Origin: Acidobacteriota bacterium
GTDB lineage: Bacteria; Acidobacteriota; Blastocatellia; Pyrinomonadales; Pyrinomonadaceae
NCBI GenBank assembly: GCA_021323895.1
Contig: JAJPKD010000147.1
Location: 81-64,080, forward strand
Direction: 5' to 3'
Length of the DNA: 64,000 bases
Made by a program: the position numbers and the translations under genes
Part shown: in pieces, positions 9,589 to 32,817 of the stretch
How the letters are laid out: the number at the start of each line of letters is the position of its first letter
Numbering within the stretch: position 1 is the stretch's first letter
The notes under the pieces: generated by a model
Seen by the model: only the letters and a program-made list of their open reading frames with translations
The model's database searches: none
What the model was told of the DNA's origin: nothing

Positions 9589-10821
9589 TCAGTGCGAACG
9601 AGCGACATTTTTGTAGACCACGCCACCCTTCATCACGAACACGACGCGTCGCACTGCGGTGATGTCTTTCAAAGGATCACCGTCGAGGGCGATGATGTCG
9701 GCCTGCATTCCCGGCGCGATCGAGCCGATCTGATCGGACATGCGAATGGCTTCGGCCGCCAGAGAGTTCGCCGAAACCATCGCTGTCATCGGGTCGACGC
9801 CACCGTCGCGCACGCGATCGATGAACTCTTCAGCGTTGCGACCGTGAGCACCTGCAACTGCGTCTGTGCCAAAAACGATCTTCAGTCCGGGAATCTTCGA
9901 AGCGCGTTGCACCAGTTCATGATTCAGCGAAAGGACGCGCTGCATTGCGGCGAAACCTTCTTCTGTGTAGCCCGGCGTGCCGAGATATCGATCCTTGTTT
10001 ACCAGATAATTCTCGATCACTAATCCCGCCTGCGGATCGAGATATGTTCCTTTCGACGCCATTAACTTCAAATCATCGTCGGTTGCCATTGTGCCGTGCT
10101 CGATCTGCGTGCATCCGGCGTTGGTCGCCGCCCGCACTGCATCTTTGTAAGCATGAACGACGGCGCGCAACCCAACTTTCCTTGCTTCGTCACAAGCCGC
10201 GTTTAGTTGCTCCTGCGACAGAGTCATGTTGCCGCCCTGGCGAATGCTGGCCGCGGCGAAAATCTTGATTACGTCTGCGCCGGCTTCCTTTTGTTTGCGA
10301 ATGAAAGCGCGAATCTGTTCCGGAGTGCCTGAACGTTCGCCTTGGCCAACCAAAGGTTCAGCCGAAGTGAGAATGCGCGAACCCGGCAATAATCCTTTAT
10401 TGATAGCATCGCGCAAAGGAATGTCTGCCGGCGAGCCAATGCTCTGAACCGTCGTGAAGCCCGCCATCAAAGTCACATAAGCATTCGAGGCCGCCGCGTA
10501 GATCGCATCGGGCGTCGTGCCGCCCTGACCCGCGTTCTTTCCGTCCTTGCCGAAGACCCAGGTCAGATGCACGTGCGCATCGATCCATCCCGGCATGACC
10601 GTCAACCCGCGCAAATCGTAATCAACCGGACCGGCTTTCGCATCGATCGCGACGATTCTTGATCCTTCTATGACGATGCGCGTGTTTCGCAGGACGTGAC
10701 CTCTGCCGTCAAGAACCGCAGTTGCCGAGATCACAACTCGTTTTGATTGGGCCGGAGCCGGATGTGCTGTCGTCAAACCGATGAGGATGGCGAGCGAAAT
10801 TATGAACGTGAGACTACGCAT
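9589..10821 (-). CDS. secreted amidohydrolase family protein
   Basis: 410 aa. It has a signal peptide. PGWIDAHVHL is the metal-binding HxH motif, and the C-terminal ...GSIAPGMQADIIALDGDPL is typical of the amidohydrolase fold. Confidence 0.75.
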   Translation of the reverse strand: MRSLTFIISLAILIGLTTAHPAPAQSKRVVISATAVLDGRGHVLRNTRIVIEGSRIVAIDAKAGPVDYDLRGLTVMPGWIDAHVHLTWVFGKDGKNAGQGGTTPDAIYAAASNAYVTLMAGFTTVQSIGSPADIPLRDAINKGLLPGSRILTSAEPLVGQGERSGTPEQIRAFIRKQKEAGADVIKIFAAASIRQGGNMTLSQEQLNAACDEARKVGLRAVVHAYKDAVRAATNAGCTQIEHGTMATDDDLKLMASKGTYLDPQAGLVIENYLVNKDRYLGTPGYTEEGFAAMQRVLSLNHELVQRASKIPGLKIVFGTDAVAGAHGRNAEEFIDRVRDGGVDPMTAMVSANSLAAEAIRMSDQIGSIAPGMQADIIALDGDPLKDITAVRRVVFVMKGGVVYKNVARSH

Positions 10822-11118
10822 TTCCTTTCTCCAGCGCTCGGGGACGTACGCTGCGTCCCTGCGCGATCGAGCCGATCCGATTGGGTTCCCGCGATTCGCC
10901 GAGATCAGGGTAAACGAGATCTCTACGGGCGCGGCGACGTTTTGATTAGGTGCCCTTCATATCACAACGTGCCGTGATCAAAAAACCGCAAATCAAATTT
11001 GGAGTTTCGTTTTCAGTTGTTGTAAAAGCTCCATATTCACCGGACGATGCGCGATCCTCGGATTGACGCCACACTTGGCTTGTTTCAGTGACGGCCAAGC
11101 TCCCGGACGCGAGCCCCA

Positions 11119-11982
11119 ATGATGCAACGCATCGTTTCTATACTCTATGACTTCTTACTGTCGGTGGCGCGTATGTACACGCTGCCACAACTGCTGGGTT
11201 TTGGAGTCACTTCAGCGGCGGTCGTGTTTGTCTCGGTAAGGCAAAGGCGACTCGGAAGGTTTGCTCGTCGTGCCGTTCTTACAGACATCACTTACAGCGC
11301 ATGGTTTGGTGTGCATGCGGCGTTCATTACTGTCCCGATGTCGCTGTGGCTGGCGAATCTGGTTTCTGGTTATGCCCCATTCCTCCGTTTGGGCTTGATC
11401 GACAACTTGCCCGCCTGGATGAGCCTTCCGTTGTTCTTCCTGGCGGCCGACTTTGTGCAGTACTGGATGCACCGTGCGATGCATCAATGGAAATGGTTGT
11501 GGACGTTCCACAAGATCCATCACTCACAGCGCGAGATTAATCCGCTGACTACCTGGCGGACGCATCCGGTTGAACTCATTTATGCGAACATCGGAGCCTT
11601 CACCGCGAGCCTGCTGATCGGAAACATCAAAGCGATCCCGCCACTGTTAGTTGGGCTCTTGGCGGCTTCGCAGTTTGCTCAACACTCGGACATAGACTGG
11701 ACTTACGGTCCGTTGGGAAGGTTCATCGTCAGCCCTCGTTTTCACGCCCGGCATCACTCGGCCGAAGCAGCAGATATCAGGGTCAATTTTGGAGGACTGT
11801 TAATAATCTGGGACCTGATCTTCGGCACCGCGCGCAGAGTGCCCGAGCGCCCAACAGCCTATGGTCTGGTTGACGCCGAGAATGATTTGCCCGGATCGTT
11901 TCTGGGCCAAGTGAGCTACCCGTTGCTGGTTTTTTGGAAGAGTACCGCGAGTCTTCTGAAGGAATTCCGCCGCAATACATAG
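11119..11982 (+). CDS. sterol desaturase / fatty acid hydroxylase superfamily membrane protein
   Basis: 287 aa. Histidine boxes HRAMH, HKIHH and HARHH sit within TM segments. Confidence 0.75.
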   Translation: MMQRIVSILYDFLLSVARMYTLPQLLGFGVTSAAVVFVSVRQRRLGRFARRAVLTDITYSAWFGVHAAFITVPMSLWLANLVSGYAPFLRLGLIDNLPAWMSLPLFFLAADFVQYWMHRAMHQWKWLWTFHKIHHSQREINPLTTWRTHPVELIYANIGAFTASLLIGNIKAIPPLLVGLLAASQFAQHSDIDWTYGPLGRFIVSPRFHARHHSAEAADIRVNFGGLLIIWDLIFGTARRVPERPTAYGLVDAENDLPGSFLGQVSYPLLVFWKSTASLLKEFRRNT

Positions 11983-17205: not shown

Positions 17206-17271
17206 GCAGCTTGGTTCGCTTTCTATTGGTTCACGAGACCGCTTGCAGGCTTCGGATGTCACCGCGAGGTC

Positions 17272-17913
17272 TTACTTCTTCGTTGTCAGTTCGTTAACAA
17301 CCTCTCCAGCCGCAGCTAGTCCGCGTGCTGTCAGTGTATATCCAGATTCCTTGGAACCAGCTATTTCTCCCGCCATGTCTTTAATATAGCTAGAGAAATT
17401 ATTTGTGTCATAGGCGTTGTAGTGGCTGAGCGCTTCCTTGAGCACCTCGTGCGTTACTCGTGGAGCGCCACTGCCGAGGTACGCCGCCACGCCCGTAAGC
17501 AGGGCGACGCTTCGCATTTTGTCCTTCTTAGTCTTGCCCGGTACTGTCTTCGCGATTAGATCGATCTCATCAATCCCGAGAGTAAAAAGCTTTGAGAGTT
17601 GATCCGTGGTCAATCCATTCCTTCTAATCCAGCGTTGGGCCACAGGACTAATCCCTTCGAATTCTCCTTCGCTTGCGGTACTGCGTGTAGTCTCCGACGA
17701 TTTGTCCTCTGATTCCTCGGTTTCCCGGGCGAGTTGCGTCGGAGAGAAGGTGCTACCAGTGCGCTCTCCAACAAGGTCACCGGTATCGAGAGACAATCTC
17801 TTAAGGACGTAGTCAAGCACACGTTTTTGAGCGTTAGCGTCCAAGTCTTTTAGGGCTCCGTAAACACTACGCATGGCGTCGAATTCTGCGTCTACATCTG
17901 TTTTTCGCGTCAT
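17272..17913 (-). CDS. hypothetical protein, partner of the wHTH-PNP gene (N-terminal helical region, acidic linker, C-terminal winged-helix-like region)
   Basis: I chose the ATG at 17913 because GAAGGAG lies 5-11 nt upstream and it sits 11 nt after the upstream stop. The track start at 17952 would overlap the upstream gene. I recognise no family. GC looks lower than in the flanks. Confidence 0.6.
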   Translation of the reverse strand: MTRKTDVDAEFDAMRSVYGALKDLDANAQKRVLDYVLKRLSLDTGDLVGERTGSTFSPTQLARETEESEDKSSETTRSTASEGEFEGISPVAQRWIRRNGLTTDQLSKLFTLGIDEIDLIAKTVPGKTKKDKMRSVALLTGVAAYLGSGAPRVTHEVLKEALSHYNAYDTNNFSSYIKDMAGEIAGSKESGYTLTARGLAAAGEVVNELTTKK

Positions 17914-17924
17914 TTTTGCTCCTT

Positions 17925-19049
17925 CTAAGGCTTCGGCCACAAATTTTCCCATTCTGCGGAAAGAAATCTGATTGCAAACTCAGCTGCTACGTATGCGGCA
18001 TATTCTTGCCATGAATCTGATTTTTCTGCCGCAAAGTCACACACGGCTTTGAATGACACAAACCGAGGCTTCGGATCCGGCGCTTCGTTGCAAGCCCGGT
18101 AAACGCCGTACGTTTCCATTTCTACTCCAATGAGCTTCCGCCAATTCTTCTGAATTTCGAGAACGCGGGTTACGTCGTCTATGACTTGATCTGCAGCACC
18201 CAATGGCCCTACGTGAAGTGCATTCATCCGCGTAGGCAACTTGCCGTCCCATGCTTCTTGGATTTCTTCGAAAACCGGATTCAGGCCCCTATACTTTTGG
18301 AGAACGCTTCGAAGACGCGGATTTAACCCAATAGGGTAGGGATCTGGAAGGAAACCCCGAATCCCTTCCGCGCGGACGACTTTCCCCGAATTGTAGTCGA
18401 CGCTCGGATCTGCCACGAGAACGTCGCCAAATTCCTTATTGCCGTCACGCGTCCCAGCAGCAATTCCAATCATCACAACAATGCGCGGCTTAAACTGCAT
18501 AATCATTTGGGTGGTAACGATCGACGCGGCTGTTAGACCCATCGACGTCGCCGTGGTTGCGACCACTCTAAGTGTCTTACCAGCGGCCGTTGTGATCTCG
18601 CATTGACGATAAACATGAGGAAATCTAGCGCTCCCTATCGGTTGCCAGTTTTCAGTTCCTCCGCACGCTTCTGTAACAGCTGCAAACTCGGGTTGTTCGA
18701 GAGCGCAGATAATACCGACGTCAAAGTCATGATCATCAGCTGTCACATCAACGACTAGAGGAAGTCCGCTTAACTTGCGCAGTCGCTCGATGCCTTTCTC
18801 CGTGAAGATCCATTTCAGTGGGGGTCCCTTATCAGCGACGCGAACGTATTTTGAGTAGGCTCGAAGACTGGCGGCTACATTCGTGGGTCTTCCCGCCTTC
18901 GGGAGATTCAGTTTCAGTACATCCTGAATTTGAGCCGTCGTGATGGCGTTCGAAGTTCCTCCGAGTGCATACACAGCCGCCAGAATCTTGTATTGATCAC
19001 TCCTCGCGCTCGGCTTGATTGCTGTGAGAATAGTAGAAAAGTCTTCCAT
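17925..19049 (-). CDS. N-terminal winged-helix-like domain fused to a PNP_UDP_1 (MTA/SAH-nucleosidase-like) phosphorylase-superfamily domain
   Basis: 374 aa. The C-terminal 260 aa or so carry three nucleosidase-type motifs: VGIICALEQPEF (compare GAMEEE), IGVEMETYGVY (compare VEMEA) and FKAVCDFA (compare the catalytic SD.A Asp). The first 100 aa or so have no enzyme motif. Confidence 0.7.
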   Translation of the reverse strand: MEDFSTILTAIKPSARSDQYKILAAVYALGGTSNAITTAQIQDVLKLNLPKAGRPTNVAASLRAYSKYVRVADKGPPLKWIFTEKGIERLRKLSGLPLVVDVTADDHDFDVGIICALEQPEFAAVTEACGGTENWQPIGSARFPHVYRQCEITTAAGKTLRVVATTATSMGLTAASIVTTQMIMQFKPRIVVMIGIAAGTRDGNKEFGDVLVADPSVDYNSGKVVRAEGIRGFLPDPYPIGLNPRLRSVLQKYRGLNPVFEEIQEAWDGKLPTRMNALHVGPLGAADQVIDDVTRVLEIQKNWRKLIGVEMETYGVYRACNEAPDPKPRFVSFKAVCDFAAEKSDSWQEYAAYVAAEFAIRFLSAEWENLWPKP

Positions 19050-19132
19050 GGGATCGGAAGCTCACTGCGTGGGCTGGCCATAATTTAGCATACAATTGTT
19101 GTTTACTTTAGGTAGTCTAACAGATTGCGTCA

Positions 19133-20587
19133 TCACCTAATTCCCACCAATCCCTGCACACTCTGAATCAATTTTTCTGAGTCATATCCCACGCCATCTT
19201 TGAAAACGATTTCGACGTTTTCAATATCCATGATCTTCGCGGCTGGATTGCCTTTCACGATCATCAGGTCGGCTTGTTTGCCGACGGCGATTGAACCGAT
19301 GCGGGAATCTTCTCCTAAGAATTTCGCGCCGTTGAAGGTCGCGATCTTGATTGCTTCAAGCGGTGTGAAGCCGGCTTCAACCAGCAGTTCGACTTCGCGC
19401 AGATCACCAAAGCCGGCAATGACGCCACCGTTGCCGGTTGGGTCGAGACCCGCTATCAGTAAACCGCCCGCCGCGACAAAGGCGTGCTCGAAGTCCATCG
19501 ACTTGCGCACGAGTTCAGTTTGCGGAGAGTTCACCGCGATGCGTGAACGTGCGGTCAGATAACGCACGCGCGCTTCGTTGTTCATTACGTTCAGCATACG
19601 CTGATTCAAGACTGCGCTCGGCGCGCCAATCGAAGTTGGGCCAGCTTGTGCAGATGCGAGCGGCGCGCTCGCTTCAAACACCGGCAGCGTTGACGTCAAC
19701 GCAACATGCTTCGCTACTAGAGTGCGAATCGTTTCTTTCACCGGCTCGCTGTTGATGTCGAGCGTGCGCAGCGTTTGGTTCACGGCGGCGCCGGGACATT
19801 TGTCCGGTTGCGTGTTGGGCACGAACTCGGAATCGGGAAAGATGCCGTGCTCGAGATTGTCGATACCAATCTCCGCTGCTTCGCGAAAGCCGATCGAGCA
19901 AAGATGGCCGGTGACTTTCAGGCCGCGCCTGTGTGCTTCTTCGACGGCGGCGCGCAGTTCGTCGCGCGTGATGTTCATGTAGGCTTTGAAAGAAGTCGCG
20001 CCCTGGTCGGCCCAGTAGTTCACCATCTTGCGCGCATCGTTAGCGTCCTTCAGCGTGTGCATCACCGGCGTGAATGAACCTTCACCTTCAAGGTAAGGAG
20101 CAGTGATGTGAATCTTCGGACCAATCATGCGACCGTCGTCGATTAGCTTTTTGATTTCTAGATCGAGATAAGGCTGCACGCTGCCGGTGGTGCGAATTGT
20201 CGTCACGCCGAGCGCCAGATAGAGTCGCGGAAAACTGAATCCCATGTTCGAATACATCGGCGGCGTGCCGCCCATCGGAAAGAACATGTGATCATGCATG
20301 CCGACCAGGCCGGGAAGAACTGTGTATCCGTTCAGGTCGAGAGTCTTGATGCCTTCTTTAACGTAGTACGCCGAACTCGGGCGGATTTCAGTGATCTTGC
20401 CGTCAACGATCAGGATTGTCTGATCCTCAACCGGCGCCGCCCCGGTGCCATCAATCAGGCGCACGTGCGTGAGCGCGACGACATTCGAACTGACGCGAAT
20501 GAACTGTTGAAGATCGGATTGCGGTGCCTGGGCGAGGGAAGCGATCGAGAACGTGAGCAGCAGAACAAAAGCAATCGTGATTTTCAT
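19133..20587 (-). CDS. secreted amidohydrolase family protein
   Basis: 484 aa. It has a signal peptide, PGLVGMHDHMF (the HxH-type metal motif) and the C-terminal GSIAVGKQADLMIVKGNP. Confidence 0.75.
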   Translation of the reverse strand: MKITIAFVLLLTFSIASLAQAPQSDLQQFIRVSSNVVALTHVRLIDGTGAAPVEDQTILIVDGKITEIRPSSAYYVKEGIKTLDLNGYTVLPGLVGMHDHMFFPMGGTPPMYSNMGFSFPRLYLALGVTTIRTTGSVQPYLDLEIKKLIDDGRMIGPKIHITAPYLEGEGSFTPVMHTLKDANDARKMVNYWADQGATSFKAYMNITRDELRAAVEEAHRRGLKVTGHLCSIGFREAAEIGIDNLEHGIFPDSEFVPNTQPDKCPGAAVNQTLRTLDINSEPVKETIRTLVAKHVALTSTLPVFEASAPLASAQAGPTSIGAPSAVLNQRMLNVMNNEARVRYLTARSRIAVNSPQTELVRKSMDFEHAFVAAGGLLIAGLDPTGNGGVIAGFGDLREVELLVEAGFTPLEAIKIATFNGAKFLGEDSRIGSIAVGKQADLMIVKGNPAAKIMDIENVEIVFKDGVGYDSEKLIQSVQGLVGIR

Positions 20588-30806: not shown

Positions 30807-31115
30807 CTAATTGTCCTTCATCGTCTCAGGGGATTTCATACTGTCTGACTTCGTCATATTCGGCTTCTTCATCGAGTCTTTCTTCATCATCATGTTCCGC
30901 TTATGCATCATGCGGCGATGACGCCGGCGCATTCGATGGCGGCGCATCATGCGATTGCTCTTCATGTTGCTTTTCATCATGCTGGGCGACTTCATTTGAT
31001 CGCTCGACATGTTGCCGTTCATGTTGTTGTTTTGGGCGCTGGCGCTGGCGGCCGTAAAGCTCAAGCACGCCAGCAACGCCATCACCATCAGTACACTTCG
31101 TTTGATTTTCTTCAT
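30807..31115 (-). CDS. secreted methionine/lysine/arginine-rich small protein (MrpX-like by composition)
   Basis: I chose the ATG at 31115 because GGAGG lies 5 nt upstream. The signal peptide is MKKIKRSVLMVMALLACLSFTAASASA. By my count the predicted mature region of about 75 aa contains 18 Met, plus many Lys, Arg, Asn, Ser and His. Confidence 0.65.
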   Translation of the reverse strand: MKKIKRSVLMVMALLACLSFTAASASAQNNNMNGNMSSDQMKSPSMMKSNMKSNRMMRRHRMRRRHRRMMHKRNMMMKKDSMKKPNMTKSDSMKSPETMKDN

Positions 31116-31176
31116 TCGTTCCTCCATATCACTCGTTAGTTTGAAACTTCTTCGAGTCAGGTCTCCACGTCACGCC

Positions 31177-31346: not shown

Positions 31347-31964
31347 ATGTTCAGGCTTTCCCGAGAAAAGAGACGGCTGGAAGACTGGGCTTCGTTCGAA
31401 AGCGAAGCTCTGCCTTTCCATGTCGATCTCTATCGTTTGGCCAAGTGGCTGCTGTGGGATCAGAGCGAGGCGGAGGACTTGGTGCAGGAAACTTTTGTGG
31501 CGGCGCTCAAATCGTTCCACCGCTACGAAAAGGGAACGAACTGCCGCGCCTGGCTGATCAAGATCATGTATCGCACCCTGAGCAAGCGCCGTCGGACTTC
31601 TGATCGCCTCCGCGTTGTAAGCGATGCGGATGAGCCGATTGAAGACAGAGTCGCCGCGCTGCCTGCGAGATCGTCGGATGCGATTGCAGAAGAAGTTCTG
31701 AATGCCCTCAAGCGCCTGCCGCGGCATTACCAGGAAGTGGTGATCCTGTCGGACGTTGAAGACATGACTTACAAAGAAATTGCCGAAGCGTTGTCGATTC
31801 CCACCGGAACAGTGATGTCGCGCCTCCATCGCGGGCGGAGTTTGCTGCGAGGAGAGTTGGCGAATTATGCCCGTTCGTATGGCATTGGCGTCGTGAAAGA
31901 AAGCGGTGAGTCGAAATTAAGATTGGCGGACGCGGCCGAAGGAGGGAAATCAAATGCACTGTGA
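31347..31964 (+). CDS. ECF sigma factor
   Basis: 205 aa. Region 2 is AEDLVQETFVAALKSFHRYEKGTNCRAWLIKIMYRT and region 4 is VILSDVEDMTYKEIAEALSIPTGTVMSRLHRGRSLL. It overlaps the downstream anti-sigma gene by 11 nt. Confidence 0.85.
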   Translation: MFRLSREKRRLEDWASFESEALPFHVDLYRLAKWLLWDQSEAEDLVQETFVAALKSFHRYEKGTNCRAWLIKIMYRTLSKRRRTSDRLRVVSDADEPIEDRVAALPARSSDAIAEEVLNALKRLPRHYQEVVILSDVEDMTYKEIAEALSIPTGTVMSRLHRGRSLLRGELANYARSYGIGVVKESGESKLRLADAAEGGKSNAL

Positions 31965-32817
31965 TGATTTCCGGGTAATCGCCGATTCGTATCTCAGCGA
32001 CGAATTGCTGATTGAAACGAACCACGACGTGATTCGTCACCTGGATTCGTGCGCCAATTGTCGATTTGAGTTGGCTGGACGCCGCCAACTGCGTCATCGG
32101 TTGAAGATCCAATTCAATGAGTCTGCCGCCTTGCGGATCCGTGAAGGATTTGCCGCCGGCCTCAAGTTGCAGTTGCGCGATCAAGCTTTGGGCCGTCCCA
32201 GAATCGCGATCCCGCGGTTTGCCTACGTGGGAGTTGCCGCGTCCATTTTGATAGCAGTCGCCGTTGGAATCCTGGGGTTGCAGAGTTTGCGCAACAGCCG
32301 CAGGGAACTGCTTGCGTGGACGAATTTGACTGAGAGCGCGATTGGCGATCATCGCGAGTGCGCGGTGGAACACAGGCTGGCACCGACGATTATCAGCCTC
32401 GACGAAGCGGGGCGAACCTACGATCGCGCGTTTGCAAATTTGGCGAGCGCCGTCTCATCGGAAGGCGTTTTGCCCGCGGGCGCGCAACTGTTGGACGCTC
32501 ATTCTTGTATGTTTCAGGGCAAGCGATTCGCGCACTTCGTCGTGAAGTACCATGACCAGATTGCTTCGGTGCTGGTTGCCAAAGTTGACGCGCCAAACAG
32601 TCGCGCGCCCAGACCTGAACCCGGCCAACTCGTGAAAGGCTTCGACGCGAATTCCTATCGCATCGCATTTTTTCAGACATCGAAGCACGCGGGCTTTGTC
32701 GTCTCGGGAATGAACGAAGCTGACAATCTGGCGATTGCGCGAAGCGTCGCGCCCGCGCTCGAGAAACAGATCCGGCGCGCCGAAGAAAACGTTGAAGCGC
32801 GCGCCTTCAAGTGGTAA
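31954..32817 (+). CDS. zf-HC2 (ZAS) anti-sigma factor, single TM, extracytoplasmic C-terminal domain
   Basis: 287 aa. The N-terminus has the H-x3-C-x2-C motif (RHLDSCANC). A TM helix ([18 protein letters not shown]) is followed by a domain of about 180 aa. Confidence 0.75.

Follow-up and report, generated by a model that had tools for sequence, protein, structure and literature searches.

PNP-type ATP nucleosidases are a recently recognised arm of immunity that is common to bacteria and animals. The switches known so far to control these effectors are cyclic nucleotides (in CBASS), phosphotransfer (in Detocs), STAND/NLR proteins and Argonautes. Here we analyze a cassette of two genes in a 64,000-nucleotide stretch of DNA from an Acidobacteriota bacterium (contig JAJPKD010000147.1; 'the window' below denotes this whole stretch), in which a PNP domain follows a predicted winged helix (wH) and is accompanied by a small second protein. 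Gene A (17925-19049, minus strand; 374 aa, taken from the listing of open reading frames, ORFs) encodes the putative effector, and gene B (17272-17913, minus strand; 213 aa, with its start at ATG 17913) encodes the putative partner. An earlier note on this DNA had suggested that the pair forms a compact sensor/effector or toxin/antidote-like module. This suggestion is supported by the DtcC-type PNP domain, by the position of the cassette as an accessory insert, by its recurrence as a unit in six phyla, and by the reuse of its wH with TIR and Hypoth_Ymh domains. In our reading, the cassette is probably a self-contained, mobile two-gene immune module of the abortive-infection type, with an ATP nucleosidase as its effector. 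It is most fittingly classed as a known kind of effector governed by a previously undescribed control module whose effectors can be exchanged.

Among the described systems, Detocs offers the closest counterpart to A. Its effector DtcC (PADLOC model PDC-M60C) is, like A, a defensive PNP protein with an N-terminal regulatory domain in front of the nucleosidase; it is the top hidden Markov model match of A and shares with it the catalytic Asp, EME and PE motifs and an insertion with the motif DYxSGK...F.PDP. Detocs also swaps its effectors. However, Detocs possesses a REC domain, the histidine kinase DtcA and the buffer protein DtcB, none of which is found in the cassette, where control would instead fall to the wH and to an unrelated partner with a hairpin-linker-wH layout. 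Pfam gave no Response_reg match in A, whose N-terminus is modeled as a wH instead. Detocs-like operons, with ORFs of ~1165, ~151 and ~410 aa in series, were present only at distant hits (loci L049-L057). Membership of Detocs was rejected for the lack of a REC domain and of DtcA or DtcB neighbors, the only gene shared by 39 A loci being B.

Cap17 of CBASS, a TPALS/SLOG-PNP ATP nucleosidase, resembles A in that a defensive PNP domain stands behind an N-terminal input domain. In contrast to A, Cap17 has a sensor domain for cyclic nucleotides. The window shows no CD-NTase or other CBASS gene, and none was seen in three related loci by their precomputed Pfam annotation. CBASS membership was likewise rejected, given that a CD-NTase is missing and that A has no cyclic-nucleotide-binding domain.

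A third resemblance leads to animals. The Zalpha domain is itself a winged helix. Rousset et al. (2023; bioRxiv 10.1101/2023.01.24.525353) noted animal Zalpha-PNP proteins (for example, Drosophila CG12065 and C. elegans H14E04.2), in which, as in A, a winged-helix-type domain precedes a PNP domain of the Cap17 clade. These animal proteins differ in having no B-like partner, and a profile search of the PDB with the A wH, which returned nothing below E = 1, gave no sequence link to Zalpha and no other sequence relative. The likeness may be convergent; a bolder extension of our reading would derive the Zalpha-PNP immune proteins of animals from this bacterial wH-PNP architecture.

Literature searches did not find a described two-gene wH-PNP system, and PADLOC v2 holds no model for B or for the A wH. 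These results agree with the earlier note, which knew of no described pair of a winged helix-turn-helix-PNP protein and a partner. In Table S4 of Rousset et al., a multi-phylum cluster of the Cap17 clade (IMG representative 2576797317; Bradyrhizobium, Verrucomicrobium, Teredinibacter) is listed with a blank 'defensive context' (bioRxiv 10.1101/2023.01.24.525353). This cluster may be the A family; the IMG identifiers could not be mapped to sequences.

The nucleosidase domain of gene A

Pfam and PADLOC identified residues 109-374 of A (17928-18725, minus strand) as a PNP_UDP_1 nucleosidase domain, apparently of the defensive type seen in Detocs and Cap17. The Pfam match (PF01048; residues 111-349, 4.1e-16) is the sole Pfam domain in A, for which AlphaFold2 produced a model with a mean predicted local distance difference test (pLDDT) score of 82. 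More than 660 homologues matched A over its full length at 62-84% identity. As the catalytic criterion we used the Asp equivalent to DtcC D353 and Cap17 D472, together with the EME and N-terminal Glu motifs. D338 of A aligned with D353, mutation of which abolishes defense by DtcC (Rousset et al., 2023; bioRxiv 10.1101/2023.01.24.525353), and P120, E121, E310, M311, E312 and D338 were invariant in 22 A homologues, which bears out the three nucleosidase motifs read in this domain before. Judged from these residues, the catalytic site of A is intact, with E121, E310-M311-E312 and D338 as the candidate catalytic groups.

The strongest profile match was to PDC-M60C (A residues 104-364; 222.9 bits, 1.5e-66), in an alignment that spans only positions 144-399 of the 407 in the profile. 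PDC-M60 is the candidate name for the system that DefenseFinder calls Detocs (supplement of PMC11811056), and PDC-M60C was therefore taken to be DtcC. The PADLOC model for the CBASS 'Effector PN-superfamily' scored 73 bits (4.3e-21). Pairwise searches with phmmer gave 125-171 bits for A against the REC-PNP proteins of the Detocs-like operons, 58 bits against the PNP domain of the biochemically validated Vibrio alginolyticus DtcC, and 26 bits against a manually entered sequence of E. coli MtnN. By BLASTP, A and the V. alginolyticus DtcC PNP domain, whose sequence came from Table S8 of Rousset et al. (2023; bioRxiv 10.1101/2023.01.24.525353), were 26% identical (E 1e-20). Compared with MTAN, the A family has an invariant insertion (…ADPSVDYNSGKV…F.PDPYP…) that is also present in DtcC-like proteins, with DYxSGK...F.PDP as the motif common to both.

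In databases, A homologues are labeled 5'-methylthioadenosine/S-adenosylhomocysteine (MTA/SAH) nucleosidase, and the nearest solved folds point the same way: Foldseek matched the A PNP domain to MTAN and futalosine hydrolase folds only (E 5e-12, TM-score 0.71), with a similar arrangement of catalytic Glu, Glu and Asp residues within the same fold (TM-score ~0.7). A might accordingly be read as a housekeeping MTA/SAH or futalosine nucleosidase that has gained an accessory domain, with B as an unrelated neighbor, but this is scarcely credible. Whereas MtnN is a single domain of ~230 aa, A is 374 aa long and carries both an additional domain at its N-terminus and an internal insertion. A also lies far under the NCBIfam cut-offs for the MtnN equivalog (54.7 bits, cut-off 169), futalosine hydrolase (25.3 bits, cut-off 124.7), another model used to test for MtnN or futalosine hydrolase (41.5 bits, cut-off 73.8) and DeoD (~19 bits, cut-off 232), and its PDC-M60C score is about fourfold its MtnN equivalog score. 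Moreover, 80 close relatives lack A at this locus, and in composition the gene is foreign to the window. Across phyla A is strictly linked to B, and nothing in its context points to methionine salvage or menaquinone. An identity as MtnN or futalosine hydrolase was rejected on the failed cut-offs, the extra domain, the accessory nature of the gene and the missing salvage or menaquinone context.

By profile scores only, the A PNP domain falls with the defensive DtcC type rather than with MtnN or futalosine hydrolase. The PADLOC and phmmer results, both of which favor DtcC, and the failed NCBIfam cut-offs are what one would expect from the earlier proposal of a defense-type rather than a housekeeping nucleosidase. 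By analogy with its relatives, A would act on ATP.

The winged helix, its partner and exchangeable effectors

AlphaFold2 modeled residues 1-98 of A (18756-19049, minus strand) as a basic wH, a candidate input or adaptor domain, at a pLDDT of ~87-92. The predicted topology is helix-(strand)-helix-helix-strand-strand-helix, with helices at residues 18-28, 38-48, 58-64 and 84-94 and strands at 69-73 and 79-82. The model thus agrees with the winged helix that had been suspected ahead of the PNP domain, and predicts a separate winged-helix domain with a trailing helix. Its invariant residues include P55, N57, R63, Y65, G75 and W80, and it is consistently basic across the family (mean net charge +6.8).

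B was modeled by AlphaFold2 (mean pLDDT 80) as an N-terminal hairpin (residues 1-42, with the helical hairpin itself at 9-39), an acidic disordered linker (43-84), a conserved middle (85-127) and a C-terminal wH (128-213), in which a helix-strand-helix-helix-strand-strand-helix order runs from 129 to 211. The pLDDT falls below 50 over most of residues 49-79 of the linker, which is variable in sequence yet always acidic (mean net charge -6.1). The short helical middle region carries an invariant G-I-S-P-V-A-x-K-W motif. All 324 homologues of B are unannotated and without a Pfam domain. No match to B was found in Pfam, NCBIfam, PADLOC or PHROGs, or in a sequence-profile search of the PDB, so the earlier description of B, as a protein with an acidic low-complexity linker and of no recognised family, holds. 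Foldseek searches of PDB and BFVD gave nothing significant for B (none below E 0.07); its list of PDB matches consists mostly of wH proteins (MarR, STIV F93, Sso10a, the MUS81 winged helix and Rok).

The earlier note had also seen a weak resemblance between the N-terminal region of A and the C-terminal region of B. Both regions are predicted as a wH with a trailing helix, and the AlphaFold2 models together with the Foldseek list suggest that a wH-like domain in both proteins is right at the level of fold class. When the two wH profiles were compared with hhalign, 79 columns aligned in the register proposed before, pairing N57 of A with N172 of B and W-x-x-T-x-x-G with Y-T-L-T-A-R-G. The hhalign probability was 1-2%, however, and sequence homology between the two domains was not accepted as shown. 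What stands of the resemblance is thus a predicted likeness in fold class and register only.

One wH carries exchangeable PNP, TIR or Hypoth_Ymh domains, and B-type partners are kept at two of the variant loci. The A wH profile was searched against 1.84 billion representative proteins and matched only 80 representatives, A-family fragments among them. In seven full-length proteins (241-256 aa) and a few fragments, the wH is joined to Hypoth_Ymh (PF09509), which we take to be HEPN-like. In two others (P0308 and P0291) it is joined to a TIR domain of the CAP12/Pycsar type (PF10137, down to 3e-42), and one further match is a divergent wH-PNP protein. The exchange is visible within a single alignment: P0317, which comprises the wH and the start of a PNP domain, is 64% identical to the wH-TIR protein P0308 over 107 aa and divergent beyond. 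A word-indexed protein search with the profile of the variant wH added only two fragments. A 1141-aa protein of 17 tandem repeats (P0257) also matched the wH profile, at 1e-29; it resembles a translated DNA repeat, and the match is probably spurious.

At one wH-TIR locus (L139:4972-7013), the effector gene (263 aa) lies between two B homologues, of 195 aa upstream and 199 aa downstream in gene order. These two proteins matched B by hmmsearch (1e-23 and 2e-28), and by hhalign with a probability of 99.4% over 189 columns. The divergent wH-PNP gene (L146) has two B-like genes upstream (BLASTP 3.6e-21 and 7e-6). The Hypoth_Ymh variants and the second TIR variant have instead an upstream partner from a different family (U-type; 158-167 aa), for example at L140:202-1417, L144:107-1351 and L142:5441-7341, separated from the effector gene by a few nucleotides in the Hypoth_Ymh loci and by ~56 nt in the TIR loci. 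U-type partners were undetected by the B profile. Their layout is like that of B, with a small N-terminal domain, a linker and a C-terminus that looks wH-like by eye. The U-type C-terminus aligned with the wH of the effector at an hhalign probability of 36-68% (E 5e-5 to 4e-4; 72-83 columns). At L142, an additional gene for a 178-aa protein with a hairpin-linker-wH layout lies downstream.

Two wH domains, one of them strongly basic, would also suit a ligand-sensing regulator, in which the PNP-like domain of A senses a nucleoside, its wH binds DNA, B serves as a co-regulator and the targets lie elsewhere. We hold this to be very improbable. Invariance of the catalytic residues throughout the family speaks for an active enzyme, and there is no conserved target DNA or neighboring gene. 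Furthermore, the same wH is found on TIR and HEPN-like effectors, which are not the ligand sensors of transcription factors.

The insertion site and spread of the A-B pair

A and B form a coupled pair on the minus strand, flanked by a DUF2277 gene (PF10041, 3.9e-37) and an amidohydrolase gene (PF01979, 1.6e-24) according to Pfam. From the stop codon of A (TAG, 17927-17925) to the start of B there are exactly 11 nt. A ribosome-binding site, GAAGGAG (17919-17925, minus strand; read from the sequence), begins with the last base of that stop codon. The longest ORF for B is 17272-17952 on the minus strand, with a start at 17952; ATG 17913 was preferred because the homologues are ~213 aa long and because of the ribosome-binding site. 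GC content at third codon positions (GC3) amounts to 0.499 in A and 0.507 in B, lower than in any other ORF compared; the 46 large ORFs of the window average 0.621 +/- 0.045. The 1.9-kb segment at 17206-19132 (GC 0.510) is the lowest-GC stretch of its length in the 64 kb; sliding windows of equally low GC make up only 0.7% of the total, and almost every one of them overlaps this segment. The region upstream of A (19050-19132, minus strand; 83 nt) is AT-rich (GC 0.446), is presumed to hold the promoter, and lies within the inserted segment, as homology to empty sites ends at 19132. Gene arrangement, composition and the AT-rich upstream region were all correctly described in the earlier note.

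As an accessory insert, the pair occupies a hotspot that varies among soil Acidobacteriota. By blastn against contigs with an empty site, the accessory segment (17206-19132, no strand assigned) reaches from the DUF2277 stop codon to the amidohydrolase stop codon. Among 80 related metagenome contigs with an orthologue of the flanking amidohydrolase (79-87% identity), none carried A or B, so that the pair is not universally conserved at this position. At empty junctions, DUF2277 follows the amidohydrolase after 97 bp (L131) or 143 bp (L077), and blastn similarity to the window stops at 19132 and 17206 in L077 and at 19137 and 17185 in L131. In 17 other contigs the junction is filled by 0.9-4.7 kb of other, mostly low-GC cargo, including an AbiJ_NTD4/Abi_C/DUF7014 protein, AIPR, a BrnT toxin, DUF4926+DUF6883 pairs, DUF4160 and ORF6N proteins that match PADLOC PDC-S05 (5.7e-54). 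A search around the insert for direct or inverted repeats at its flanks, for transposon-like ends and for target duplications was negative. Unannotated junction ORFs in L078 (473 aa) and L081 (277 and 203 aa) have Rx4H motifs and look HEPN-like by eye. The amidohydrolase/DUF2277 junction (loci L059-L138) could yield further defense candidates.

A-B is conserved and moves horizontally as a unit. When one genome per species was scanned, 43 A-family loci came up (52-84% identity), of which 41 are complete or almost complete. Their hosts belong to six phyla: Acidobacteriota, Nitrospirota, Pseudomonadota (Alpha- and Betaproteobacteria), Planctomycetota, Verrucomicrobiota and Bacteroidota. In each of the 39 non-redundant loci where a full-length A and a detectable B are both present, B is the very next gene after A. 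When all flanking ORFs were clustered, these 39 loci shared no further neighboring gene, and the contexts of the Variibacter, Nitrospira and Acidobacteriota pairs are mutually unrelated. Between copies, the proportion of differences was ~0.83 at synonymous sites (pS), which are saturated, and 0.24 for A and 0.38 for B at nonsynonymous sites (pN). The saturated pS and low pN indicate that both genes are old and under strong purifying selection. In some metagenome-assembled genomes (L015, L021, L042, L044, L047 and L048, ~10000-11800), A or B is split into two or three ORFs; these copies could be pseudogenes or could reflect indel errors of long-read assembly.

This distribution, which is patchy, scattered and single-copy, is also typical of toxin-antitoxin modules. 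The cassette might be such an addiction module with no dedicated antiphage role, in which A is a nucleotide-degrading toxin and B a labile antitoxin whose linker or hairpin neutralizes A and whose wH represses the operon. Toxin-first type II modules such as higBA and brnTA share with the cassette a pair of coupled genes with the toxin first and a residence in variable hotspots, and their second protein, like B, combines a DNA-binding-type fold with a disordered region. A and B are two small, translationally coupled genes, and B joins a DNA-binding-type fold to a disordered acidic segment as many antitoxins do. BrnT and DUF4926/DUF6883 pairs, moreover, occupy the same hotspot in relatives. We nevertheless regard an addiction module as unlikely. 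Upstream DNA could not be aligned between loci, and the 150 nt upstream of A in 17 loci contained no conserved motif or palindrome that might serve as an operator; operators can diverge, which makes this absence weak evidence. In contrast to type II modules, the supposed toxin here itself carries a wH, its effector domain is swapped, and two partner genes accompany it in some variants. Swapping of PNP, TIR and HEPN-like domains while the adaptor stays constant is the hallmark of immune systems. The distinction between toxin-antitoxin and abortive infection is in part semantic, since many toxin-antitoxin modules are defense systems.

Several observations weigh against an immune module. The amino-acid conservation of A across phyla (62-84%) is unusually high for an immune gene. 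In the window, the cassette is surrounded by housekeeping genes, with no classical defense island there. No A-family member was found in the plasmid and phage collections searched, which held only DtcC-like 'response regulator' genes at <=37% identity. Some cassettes do have known defense genes as neighbors, with matches among 144 nearby ORFs to models for MADS, type II restriction-modification, SspH and PDC-S32; these are raw matches without a background rate. Finally, specificity for ATP is extrapolated from relatives, the validated DtcC PNP domain being only 26% identical to A.

A model of control, and other features of the window

If the cassette is an abortive-infection module as we propose, the PNP domain of A, being of the Cap17/DtcC kind, would upon activation cleave the N-glycosidic bond of ATP and dATP. 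This expectation follows what Rousset et al. (2023) established biochemically for Cap17 and DtcC. The drain on ATP would arrest the growth of the infected cell, so that phage could not replicate. The basic wH of A would be the control or input domain and B its dedicated partner, which would either keep A inactive or relay a signal of infection. It is the swapping pattern that suggests the wH as the control domain and suggests that B acts through it. A phage-defense phenotype, physical contact between A and B, and a trigger are what we infer for the cassette.

PNP/MTAN active sites span subunit interfaces, TIR NADases work only once assembled, and HEPN RNases act as dimers. Because all three kinds of exchangeable domain need to form dimers or oligomers, control by induced proximity would be the most economical model, and activation would most likely consist in bringing the effector domains together. 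More speculatively, B might mask a nucleic-acid-binding surface of the wH until a phage cue displaces or destroys it, a version suggested by the opposite charges of the A wH (basic) and the B linker (acidic).

We further propose, tentatively and as a matter on which we are close to evenly divided, that the cassette is the first example of an antiphage family not described so far, with a wH adaptor, interchangeable PNP, TIR or HEPN-like suicide effectors, and one or two partners that act as a new kind of sensor or guard. If so, the control logic would be new and compact, consisting of one wH on the effector and one small partner, and reused for TIR and HEPN-like domains. Such a cassette could reveal how a minimal sensor gates an effector that depends on oligomerization. 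With two genes and 1.8 kb, it would be easy to synthesize and challenge. The A-B pair is found in soil phyla that have seldom been used for the discovery of defense systems.

A consensus scan of 19050-19132 did not find a sigma-70 match upstream of A, and scanning for promoters and terminators around the cassette gave nothing useful. Rfam and tRNA scans found no RNA genes near the cassette, the only hit in the window being a tRNA-Leu at 61.8 kb. The second-lowest-GC stretch of the window contains an ORF of 106 aa (30807-31127, minus strand) that starts with an apparent signal peptide and has a low-complexity body extremely rich in Met, Lys, Arg and Asn (…MMKSNMKSNRMMRRHRMRRRHRRMMHKRNMMMKK…). 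This ORF adjoins two genes (31347-31964 and 31954-32817) that, by eye, likely encode an extracytoplasmic function (ECF) sigma factor and its anti-sigma factor.

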